Source: Escherichia coli (GTDB taxonomy: Bacteria > Pseudomonadota > Gammaproteobacteria > Enterobacterales > Enterobacteriaceae). From it: 64,000 bases of DNA. The stretch lies in NCBI RefSeq assembly GCF_003790525.1, contig NZ_CP033635.1; one strand, 5' to 3'. This document shows, piece by piece, positions 2,326 through 3,712 of the stretch. The notes beneath the pieces are model-generated. The model was given only the letters and a program-made list of their open reading frames with translations. It searched no databases and had not been told where the DNA came from. Both the position numbers and the translations under genes were made by a program. Each line of letters opens with the position of its first letter. Position 1 is the first letter of the stretch.

Positions 2326-2505
2326 CTATTCCTGCTCTTTGGCCTTGCGCCGCTGGCGGCGTTTGATCTCGCCTTTTGCGGCAGTAACTAAAAAACCAGC
2401 GGTACTTTCGCCAGGTTCTTTAAGTTGCTCAATATCATCCATTACTTCATGTGGGATTCTGACAGTTGTCATTTGTGATTTTGCGTTCTTTGCACCAGTT
2501 GCCAT
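2326..2505 (-). CDS. Small ribbon-helix-helix-like DNA-binding protein (59 aa)
   Basis: C-terminal part of minus ORF 2326-2796 starting MATGAKNAKSQMTTVRIPHEVMDDIEQL; AGGAG 7 nt upstream of the ATG; followed on the minus strand by a hairpin (GGCCACC/GGTGGCC, 2273-2292) and a T-run. Confidence 0.45.
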   Translation of the reverse strand: MATGAKNAKSQMTTVRIPHEVMDDIEQLKEPGESTAGFLVTAAKGEIKRRQRRKAKEQE

Positions 2506-2692
2506 TTCTGGATCTCCTAAAAATTGGTGTATGTCAGTATACGCAAAAAAAATGATAAAAAAAGGCTTGAAGTGTATTTCACCAGTGAGTAAATTAAAAA
2601 GCAAAGGTGAAATACACCTGAAAGAGCAACGCCCCGCAGTGCTCGCAACACATGCAGGGCGTCTAACCAAACCGTTAAACGAGGTAACGATT

Positions 2693-2890
2693 ATGGCTGG
2701 AACACAGCATACCCCACGACTAGCGCACACACAAACCGCCTTTGTGTGGCGTTTTCTGGCACTGAGTGCCGGAGAATCCCAGATCATCCACGTCACCGCC
2801 TGGACGGAACGCGAAGCGCGTAACCGTTGCCCGTCCGGTTGTGTCGCTGTATTCGCCGCCCGTATTCGTCAGGGGGTGTGCCATGATTAA
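2693..2890 (+). CDS. Hypothetical small protein (65 aa)
   Basis: ATG at 2693 preceded by GAGG; lies in frame within track ORF 2054-2890; stop overlaps the next start (ATGATTAA). Confidence 0.4.
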   Translation: MAGTQHTPRLAHTQTAFVWRFLALSAGESQIIHVTAWTEREARNRCPSGCVAVFAARIRQGVCHD

Positions 2891-3251
2891 CCTGTCACTT
2901 ACCGATCTTAACCGCGTTCAGTTTCGTGAGAAATTTACCGGACAGCTACTCGTCAATGTGGAGAACGGGCGCATAGTGCGTAATTATCACCTGCCGGATG
3001 GTGCAATTGCCGGAAGCGTTGAAGCATTGCTTGAACTGGCGGAACGTGCGCGACTGATTAAGCCGTCAACGAGCCATCACGATGATGATCTGCATTTTAC
3101 CGGATGTATGGTGAGTCACTACGAAAACGGCGTCGAGGTATCCTGCGAACGGCTGCGTGATGATTGCTGTTTCGGCACACTGCCGGAATTTATCGAATTG
3201 CTGACCAGTTGCGGATATCAGGTTATTCAGGGGGTGCGCCATGTGCAATAA
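2883..3251 (+). CDS. Hypothetical protein (122 aa, MINLSLTDLNRVQF...)
   Basis: Internal ATG of track ORF 2766-3251; overlaps the preceding and following genes. Confidence 0.5.
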   Translation: MINLSLTDLNRVQFREKFTGQLLVNVENGRIVRNYHLPDGAIAGSVEALLELAERARLIKPSTSHHDDDLHFTGCMVSHYENGVEVSCERLRDDCCFGTLPEFIELLTSCGYQVIQGVRHVQ

Positions 3252-3480
3252 CATCCGTCCGGACGCAGCCGCCGAAGCCATCATAACGCTAATGCACGCG
3301 CTGATTGATATTTCATGCACGGCAGCAACCGCAGAAAAACACATTACCAGAGAGCCGGAATATACAGGGGCAATAATCCCGCATTTGCTGGCCTACGCAC
3401 AGCTTACCGCTGATATGGCGCTGAATGAGGCCAAAGCTATCCTGATTGCTGATTGTGAAAATGGGGGGGGTTATGCGTGA
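3241..3480 (+). CDS. Hypothetical protein (79 aa)
   Basis: Track ORF; start overlaps the upstream stop. Confidence 0.45.
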   Translation: MCNNIRPDAAAEAIITLMHALIDISCTAATAEKHITREPEYTGAIIPHLLAYAQLTADMALNEAKAILIADCENGGGYA

Positions 3481-3712
3481 TGATCGTTTTAATTCCCTGA
3501 AACAGGAATTTTCCGGCGTATCTGATGATGCGAGTGATGCGCTTTCGTCAATATCCGAACTGATAAGAGCGGCATTTTTCTTACTTGGCACGAAAGAAAA
3601 TAAAAAAACGGGGTTTGATGTACTAAATATCACCGCTGATTATGCGGAATATGTGTCAGAAGTCGATTTAAGAAAAATCCCGAATTGTCGCGGCATTAAT
3701 AACGCTTCTTGA
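3473..3712 (+). CDS. Hypothetical protein (about 79 aa, MRDDRFNSLKQEF...)
   Basis: ATG at 3473 preceded by a G-rich Shine-Dalgarno and overlapping the previous stop (ATGCGTGA); track ORF 3446-3712 uses an upstream TTG. Confidence 0.4.
   Translation: MRDDRFNSLKQEFSGVSDDASDALSSISELIRAAFFLLGTKENKKTGFDVLNITADYAEYVSEVDLRKIPNCRGINNAS

Follow-up and report, generated by a model that had tools for sequence, protein, structure and literature searches.

The first ~10.5 kb of a 64,000-nt stretch of Escherichia coli DNA (contig NZ_CP033635.1 of assembly GCF_003790525.1; hereafter the window) is, by its gene content, a phage satellite of the Gram-negative phage-inducible chromosomal island (PICI) type: int, alpA and a replication gene are co-oriented, the element measures about 10 kb, carries a captured capsid gene and is inserted in the chromosome. 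We analyzed its switch region and early operon. An earlier note on positions 2326 to 3712 had described a small minus-strand gene for a ribbon-helix-helix (RHH)-like protein facing four overlapping open reading frames (ORFs), with an inverted repeat between the divergent starts. All five ORFs lie at the coordinates it gave, the minus-strand ORF having an AGGAG 7 nt 5' of its ATG and, as the note had also claimed, a terminator on its 3' side. This gene is called ylcI below, and the first of the facing ORFs icd. The control region between and around the two genes contains the following features:

2275-2294, minus strand: intrinsic terminator of ylcI, stem GGCCACCGTGACAGGTGGCC with 7 G+C base pairs, then TTTTCTTT
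2326-2505, minus strand: ylcI, 59 aa, YlcI/YnfO family, proposed repressor
2527-2537: candidate operator box O1, GTGTATGTCAG, overlapping the -10 and start region of the ylcI promoter
2536-2541, minus strand: -10 hexamer TATACT of the ylcI promoter
2567-2595, plus strand: early-operon promoter P_icd, with -35 TTGAAG (2567-2572), a 17-nt spacer and -10 TAAATT (2590-2595)
2572-2582: candidate operator box O2, GTGTATTTCAC, in the P_icd spacer; left arm of the repeat
2607-2617: candidate operator box O3, GTGAAATACAC, O2 in inverted orientation, about +5 to +15 relative to P_icd; right arm of the repeat
2619-2704, minus strand: predicted ~80-nt antisense RNA (countertranscript) covering the start codon, Shine-Dalgarno sequence and leader of icd
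2629-2662, minus strand: terminator hairpin of the antisense RNA, then a U-rich tail
2673-2689, minus strand: 5' hairpin of the antisense RNA, with the anti-Shine-Dalgarno sequence in its loop
2706-2734, minus strand: candidate antisense promoter inside icd codons 5-14, with -35 TTGTGT (2729-2734), a 17-nt spacer and -10 TATGCT (2706-2711)
2693-2890, plus strand: ORF1 (icd), 65 aa, Icd-like, first cistron of the early operon

The ylcI product matches the NCBIfam model NF041551 at 64 bits (cutoff 30), covering profile positions 1-42 of 42, while a Pfam search gave nothing significant and a sequence search of the PDB no match. Its AlphaFold2 (AF2) monomer model (predicted local distance difference test, pLDDT, 88) has a β-strand-helix-helix fold of about 45 residues, the top structural match of which is a CopG-family fold. 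The G-x-S/T/N turn between the helices corresponds to G32-E33-S34; across 59 homologues E33 is invariant and the other two residues nearly so. The RHH-like nature that the earlier note had proposed, subject to such a fold being predicted, is borne out by this model.

The inverted repeat is perfect over 12 bp, as that note had it, although it starts at 2572 and not 2571 (GTGTATTTCACC, 2572-2583, and GGTGAAATACAC, 2606-2617); with a spacer of 22 nt, it can be lengthened to 17 nt at 88%. Comparison with related loci indicates that this dyad is two (O2 and O3) of three GTG-N5-CAC boxes, the consensus across loci being GTG-N5-CA(C/G). The comparison set consisted of 57 YlcI loci from many Enterobacterales genera, and boxes were analyzed in 51 of these. 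The 200 nt 5' of ylcI follow a fixed plan, in which an A-rich stretch separates box 1 and TATACT from the -35 hexamer and box 2. Box offsets are fixed in the 51 loci (22, 67 and 88-103 nt), with O1 placed 22 nt from the ylcI ATG in 50 of them and 21 nt in one. The ylcI -10 hexamer recurs with the same sequence and offset in 43/57 loci, and as TATAAT or TATAGT in 7 more; for P_icd, the -35 reads TTGA[ACG]G in 50/57 loci, the spacer is 17 nt long in 43/57 and the -10 fits TAnnnT in 53/57. Recurrence of the same elements at fixed offsets in 51 loci places the repeat beyond chance. Box 3, inverted in the class to which the window belongs, is direct in many other classes, so that the conserved feature is a set of protein sites, not a hairpin; an RNA hairpin or terminator formed by the 12-bp repeat was rejected on the same ground, its right arm being a direct copy in those classes.

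RHH proteins contact DNA through their N-terminal β-strand, as established for Arc, MetJ, CopG and omega, and it is this strand of YlcI that the boxes follow. Within a locus, box 1 differs from box 2 at a mean of 1.5 of 11 positions and box 3 at 0.5; across loci with different β-strands, these values rise to 4.0 and 3.5. The N5 core is shared by 111/112 pairs of loci with the same β-strand 7-mer, versus 41/1163 pairs with different strands. Residues 12 and 14, flanked by the invariant S10 and R16, track the core: M/T goes with TATTT, K/E with GCTGA, Q/N with CGATT or CTATG, and K/Q mostly with GAGTC-like cores. Across the 51 loci, the 5-nt core changes with the β-strand, which yields about 15 specificity classes.

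Three recombinant loci from other strains separate the boxes from their neighbors. Strain AR_0085 (locus L001) has the same ylcI and boxes with an icd that is only 54% identical; GF60 (L002) has the same icd without this ylcI/box module; and E. coli CM2 (L152, positions 2156-2480) has another RHH gene in the ylcI slot, which encodes 64 aa, bears the annotation HicB-family antitoxin and is accompanied by its own two GGTGTACACC(C)TAT repeats, after which come the same antisense-RNA element and icd. The AlpA protein is identical in all three. The boxes therefore follow the RHH gene and neither alpA nor icd, and the alternative RHH gene of CM2 indicates a modular repressor slot. AlpA and Icd were rejected as box-binding proteins since these loci uncouple both from the boxes. 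The operator-like role that the earlier note had suggested for the repeat, lying between an RHH gene and a divergent operon, is strengthened, as the boxes number three, lie on two promoters and have a core that co-varies with the β-strand.

A second conserved element occupies the interval between O3 and the icd start, and consists of the hairpin at 2629-2662, the sequence CTAACCA, and the hairpin at 2673-2689 with the Shine-Dalgarno sequence in its loop. In an alignment of 44 distinct sequences, 16 base pairs are backed by covariation, 11 of them with changes on both sides; none of 500 shuffles reached the observed values, and slid controls were about 40% paired. The 82-nt minus-strand sequence has a minimum free energy of -35.4 kcal/mol (z -4.9). 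Within the first 120 nt of icd, the site that most resembles a promoter occurs at the same position in 42/49 loci, with a start at about +7 from the icd ATG (near 2700 in the window), and this position is kept even where the encoded Icd N-terminus is unrelated. A covariance model built from satellites only (R1) scores 79 bits in the window. It matched all 80 independent IMG/VR satellite contigs examined, with 80 matches in total, and the GF60 locus, where ylcI is missing, has the element as well. Among Rfam families, C4 and isrK gave no match at E ≤ 1 over window positions 1-9000 or at E ≤ 10 over 2480-2760, and the only sub-threshold matches were R1162 and isrD, the latter weak, located at the ylcI terminator and really that terminator. 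We take the element to encode a conserved ~80-nt cis-antisense RNA that faces the icd ribosome-binding site; this RNA, which the earlier note had missed, probably forms the other half of the switch.

The same structure may alternatively act in the sense strand, as a cis leader of the icd mRNA (a translational operator, processing site or attenuator), without any antisense RNA. The same helices form on the plus strand, where 91.5% of cells are paired (z -2.7); a Shine-Dalgarno sequence in a hairpin loop is a common target of translational repressors; in the RNAalifold structure, the invariant CCA (2666-2668) is also paired with UGG in the start region; and the Rfam match lies on the plus strand. 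Pairing nevertheless rises to 97.4% on the minus strand, and the non-canonical cells of the plus strand comprise 53 A·C against 2 G·U. As a plus-strand A·C is a minus-strand G·U, this is the signature of selection on the minus strand, which points to the minus strand as the functional RNA. The U-rich tail after the G+C hairpin is found on the minus strand only, the promoter-like site is also on that strand, and the closest structural relative is a documented countertranscript locus (IncQ, below). We regard a purely sense-strand leader as unlikely, and retain the antisense RNA in what follows.

Downstream of this region, the early operon comprises:

2883-3251, plus strand: ORF2, 122 aa, accessory; phrog_340 (E 2e-28)
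3241-3480, plus strand: ORF3, 79 aa; phrog_2512 positions 1-76 (length 154), N-terminal half of a ~150-aa gene
3463-3470, plus strand: poly-G tract, G8 here; hypervariable, its length setting the fused or split state of ORF3 and ORF4
3473-3712, plus strand: ORF4, 79 aa; phrog_2512 positions 78-145, C-terminal half of the ~150-aa gene
3791-4078, plus strand: DUF4222 protein; phrog_285; so annotated by the NCBI Prokaryotic Genome Annotation Pipeline (PGAP) in AR_0085 and GF60; ATGA overlap with RepA
4075-5481, plus strand: RepA-family helicase, the satellite replication protein; phrog_2850 (E 4e-188) and primase/helicase families; named helicase RepA family protein by PGAP

The three start/stop overlaps on which the earlier note had based a coupled four-gene operon are present (ATGATTAA, ATGTGCAATAA and ATGCGTGA). 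The operon itself is better described as three genes altered by a frameshift and a deletion, with a fifth coupled ORF, that of the DUF4222 protein, between ORF4 and RepA. Chains with overlaps of -4, -8 or -11 run from the Icd-like first gene through variable small ORFs in other genera too; in about half of the examined loci the chain could be recovered complete, and in these it ends in a helicase/primase gene of 455-688 aa. A terminator scan found no plus-strand terminator-like site between 2748 and 4200. The DUF4222 gene is syntenic with the rep gene across several genera. All or much of one gene order is found throughout the 57 YlcI loci: int and alpA, then ylcI, which points leftward, and icd, which points rightward, then DUF4222 and a helicase/primase gene. 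By its layout, then, the early operon is not autonomous: the overlapping chain appears to continue through DUF4222 into the RepA helicase.

This bears on the proposal of the earlier note that the four ORFs form a self-contained cargo module (toxin-antitoxin, anti-helper or anti-phage defence), repressed by the RHH protein, in which four proteins produced in stoichiometric amounts act together and independently of replication. P1 Icd is a cell-division inhibitor, which fits such a module. ORF2, the ORF3/4 gene and a neighboring 77-aa gene do vary and shuffle between elements, in keeping with a 'dynamic zone' (PMC10111431), and at a prophage locus of ECOR61, in which an Icd-like gene is linked to five others, one of them for a primase, growth arrest follows expression of a phage accessory gene, the Icd-like protein being the likely effector (bioRxiv 10.1101/2023.04.06.535777). 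If the ECOR61 locus is of the same type, operons of this kind can be harmful when derepressed. Against the module stand the continuity of the chain, both physical and predicted translational, with DUF4222 and RepA, uninterrupted by any terminator, and the retention of the Icd-like first gene and control region where ORFs 2-4 are absent. The ORF3/4 gene tolerates frameshifts and the neighboring gene is deleted here, neither of which is expected of a stoichiometric four-part machine. YlcI is monocistronic, unlike an antitoxin: with its own terminator and no ORF after it, ylcI has no co-transcribed adjacent toxin gene of the type II kind, and the divergent ORFs have no toxin-family matches. ORFs 1-4 match no solved structure or known defence family; Pfam has no significant match for ORF2 or the fused ORF3/4; and PADLOC 2.0 has none for YlcI, ORF1, ORF2, fused ORF3/4, the 77-aa protein, DUF4222 or RepA, taken from the window or from intact relatives. 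Its sole match was a weak one to ZorE/HNH (E 0.008), for a 63-aa ORF present only in relatives. An autonomous cargo module is therefore improbable.

Instead, we consider it probable, from the comparative evidence, that this region holds a two-layer control of the kind found in plasmids, in which the YlcI repressor and the antisense RNA together gate an early operon leading into RepA. In the first layer, YlcI would bind the three GTG-N5-CAC boxes via its N-terminal β-strand; bound at O2 and O3, which bracket the -10 of P_icd, it would shut P_icd, and bound at O1 it would act on the ylcI promoter in negative autoregulation. In the second, an antisense RNA would be made from the promoter in the first icd codons, end at its own terminator hairpin and, being complementary to the Shine-Dalgarno sequence and start codon of icd, block translation of the first cistron. 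The downstream ORFs start inside the previous gene or within a few bases of its stop (overlaps of 4-11 nt) and have G-rich Shine-Dalgarno sequences. If they are translationally coupled, as this suggests, both layers would reach DUF4222 and RepA and, hence, satellite replication, which would stay off until a helper phage overrides the block through AlpA or some anti-repressor.

That the boxes are bound by another factor (a host or helper-phage protein, AlpA or the Icd-like protein) and that YlcI has an unrelated role, for instance as an orphan antitoxin, is very improbable: PHROG does label two Icd-like families 'transcriptional repressor', some relatives have a 63-aa gene after ylcI on the same strand (4530-4721 in the AR_0085 locus) that could be read as the toxin of an antitoxin-toxin pair, and the same slot holds a HicB-family 'antitoxin' in other strains, but the boxes co-vary with exactly the β-strand by which RHH proteins read DNA, do not track alpA or icd alleles in the recombinant loci, and the 63-aa gene is missing in the window, as it is in most loci.

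The two-layer circuit proposed here has its nearest counterpart in the E-F-repA-repC operon of IncQ plasmids (RSF1010/R1162), where a small F repressor acts on repeats at promoter P4 and a 75-nt countertranscript (RF00043) is directed against the repA ribosome-binding site. The satellite, as proposed, would combine in the same way a small repressor acting on repeats that flank a -10 with an antisense RNA over the ribosome-binding site heading a helicase operon, the helicase being of the RepA family in each case. Both leaders also share one layout, made of a G+C hairpin, CUAACCA(c)CAAC, a Shine-Dalgarno hairpin and AUGGCU. Model R1 matches the antisense strand of an RSF1010-type locus at 23.4 bits (E ~8e-4), a similarity that is reciprocal but weak. 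Unlike its IncQ counterpart, the satellite repressor is transcribed divergently, lies outside the operon and is unrelated in sequence to F; the satellite RNA would target an Icd-like leader cistron and not repA; and the element is integrated and not a plasmid. On the IncQ1 plasmid pP59A-5 (locus L151, 130-640), two GAGTACTCACGC repeats flank the TATACT -10 of an RSF1010-type P4, followed by genes E and F and the repA leader, and the 68-aa F protein of this plasmid shows an RHH-like pattern (RKFWLTDDEYEALRECLEEL).

Other known circuits resemble parts of the arrangement. In pMV158/pLS1, the RHH repressor CopG and the antisense RNA II act on repB. There, as proposed for the satellite, an RHH repressor of ~45-60 aa and a countertranscript bear on the transcription and translation of a replication gene, but CopG shares a transcript with repB and has a 13-bp pseudo-palindrome as its binding site, whereas the satellite has three dispersed 11-bp boxes of variable orientation and many heterospecific classes. 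In the immI region of P1, c4 RNA controls icd and, via translational coupling, the antirepressor gene ant, and the P4 CI RNA is related to it. The satellite would share with P1 an Icd-family first cistron whose ribosome-binding site is masked by a small RNA and whose translation is needed for downstream overlapping genes. Unlike in P1 and P4, its RNA is a predicted cis-antisense transcript, not a processed sense-strand RNA acting in trans, and has no C4/isrK match. A tblastn search with ORF1 against 50,697 phage records returned a single satellite-like record and no P1-type phage; ORF1 thus lacks BLAST-level similarity to any P1-like record, and its similarity to P1 Icd could not be shown. Some Gram-negative PICIs are reported to carry immunity RNAs of the C4 kind in the corresponding zone (PMC10111431). 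Finally, Staphylococcus aureus pathogenicity islands (SaPIs) and other Gram-positive PICIs likewise place a repressor gene (Stl/Rpr) near int and divergent from the replication operon (PMC6092414), with many allelic specificities; Stl proteins, however, are larger helix-turn-helix proteins inactivated by helper-phage proteins, whereas Gram-negative PICIs are reported to be induced via AlpA.

A broader proposal can be put forward tentatively, as a real possibility to which we give less weight than to the circuit itself: a large group of Gram-negative PICI-type satellites may have YlcI/YnfO RHH proteins as their heterospecific master repressors, or immunity determinants, with ~15 operator specificities set mainly by residues 12 and 14, and these proteins may act together with a previously undescribed cis-antisense RNA, descended from or converged on the IncQ repA countertranscript, in a plasmid-style replication control. 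Whether a global repressor exists in Gram-negative PICIs has been described as unclear (PMC6092414). The description of this zone in PMC10111431 includes no RHH repressor or cis-antisense RNA, a preprint on cf-PICIs adds nothing further on the region, and we found no functional description in the literature of YlcI/YnfO, DUF3950, RHH proteins in PICIs or antisense RNAs in satellites. The present locus offers a candidate repressor, operators predicted at base-pair level, a simple recognition code and a second regulator, the predicted antisense RNA. If correct, the proposal would explain the silence of these satellites and the hetero-immunity of co-resident ones, link satellite replication control to IncQ-type plasmids and give the YlcI/YnfO family a function.

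Several points weigh against the proposed circuit. It is built throughout by comparison; binding and repression are predictions, as are the cellular presence of the RNA, its translational effect and the route of induction. Induction of Gram-negative PICIs has been attributed to the activator AlpA (PMC6092414). Some part of window positions 1800-4100 is matched in 1781/5426 complete E. coli genomes, whereas this exact ylcI-operator-leader segment is nearly complete in 83/5426, which makes YlcI one of several interchangeable regulators and not a universal PICI repressor. YlcI also varies in helix A (residues 22-31), as much as in the β-strand. The candidate antisense promoter of the window scores just 7/12, its terminator tail (UUGCUCUUUC) is weaker than that of most relatives, and RF00043 gives 19.9 bits on the window, far below its gathering threshold of 55 (E 0.28 in a 281-nt search). 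Lastly, ylcI and the boxes are adjacent, and shared ancestry alone gives some co-variation; what carries the argument is that three separate boxes change in concert, together with the recombinant loci.

The individual early ORFs are ordinary satellite genes, although the earlier note, which had contrasted its cargo reading with this case, had recognized none of them. ORF1 matches NCBIfam NF033153 at 64.9 bits (cutoff 25), and such Icd-like proteins are routinely annotated by NCBI in these satellites; ORFs 2-4 are ordinary in a weaker sense, as members of PHROG families without assigned function that are common in E. coli satellites. The conserved start of ORF1 is the ATG at 2693 (MAxxQxTQT); a longer Icd N-terminus given by PGAP in some genomes (GTG 2585 here) was rejected, the upstream frame not being conserved across loci. 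Inside icd, a terminator-like hairpin and T-run on the plus strand (2728-2748) lie in an insertion specific to this icd allele, and could form an attenuator when icd is untranslated.

ORF2 consists of two ~45-aa repeats (internal duplication at 33% identity, E 2e-5), is modeled by AF2 with low confidence (pLDDT 56) and was found in only ~11/80 related IMG/VR loci. Its variants of 70-91, 121 and 181-196 aa look like products of recombination between modules. A 17-nt cassette, TCAGGGGGTG(T/C)GCCATG, which holds a Shine-Dalgarno sequence and a start codon, occurs at two ORF junctions (2869-2885 and 3227-3243); taken with the many fused or shortened variants of ORF2, it has the look of a joint at which recombination shuffles small gene modules.

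ORF3 and ORF4 form one ORF of 150/151 aa in AR_0085 and GF60. In 82 copies, the length of the poly-G tract was 7 (21 copies), 8 (35), 9 (15), 10 (5), 11 (3) or 12 (3): tracts of 7 or 10 give a fusion of 142-156 aa, those of 8 or 11 a first ORF of 73-80 aa, and those of 9 or 12 one of 80-86 aa. The G-run stays 5' of the downstream ATG and can act as a Shine-Dalgarno sequence. The split in the window stems from the G8 run, so the coupling that had been seen in ATGCGTGA is one state of a slippery tract. Interrupted, hence stabilized, tracts occur only in split frames, which suggests that the split form is tolerated; the length variation could be real slipped-strand variation or, in part, assembly error. 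Relative to AR_0085 and GF60, a 129-nt deletion at 3682/3683 has removed most of the following 77-aa gene and fused its remnant to ORF4, which thereby acquired its last ~10 codons and a new stop. ORF2 and the ORF3/4 gene are variable, shufflable passengers of the operon.

The remaining features of the satellite and its insertion site are as follows:

188-1438: int, satellite integration gene
1813-2001, plus strand: alpA, AlpA-family regulator/excisionase, end of the integration zone; PHROG 2790/66 (E 1e-17)
2054-2150, plus strand: 5' remnant of a Bro-N/AntA-type gene, directly after alpA and cut off at the start of the ylcI module
6294-6704: SSB
7608-9524: ClpP-like prohead protease/major capsid fusion; NF045540, 908 bits
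11084-13215: host phoQ/phoP

The satellite lies upstream of phoQ-phoP, and no tRNA gene was found in the window. WP_032354309.1, which carries the annotation AlpA-family transcriptional regulator, is 100% identical to the alpA product. A four-zone layout has been described for Gram-negative PICIs, with a 'dynamic' zone between the integration and replication zones that holds Bro-type proteins and C4/isrK immunity RNAs (PMC10111431); the early-operon region is this dynamic zone, here without an intact Bro-type gene. The N-terminus encoded by the remnant, MKTGYTPEQGRGFVRP, matches a 196-aa protein (P0172) that carries PF08346, and PGAP calls the remnant an incomplete pseudogene in AR_0085 and GF60. 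The cassette made of ylcI, operators, antisense RNA and icd looks like an insertion or replacement in this zone.

In some contigs, two ylcI-icd control modules lie close together (L036 and L038, both Pectobacterium, L062, L127 and L138). The paired modules of L036 and L038 differ in box specificity (for example GTGTT with CGATT), which is consistent with tandem or neighboring hetero-immune satellites. At 1487-1520 and 1625-1653, between int and alpA, the window also contains direct repeats in tandem, ACAACGTG(C/A)AACAA, as well as an inverted repeat, AAAGGCATAAAA/TTTTATGCCTTT, that is perfect over 12 bp; these may be regulatory sites for the int/alpA region.

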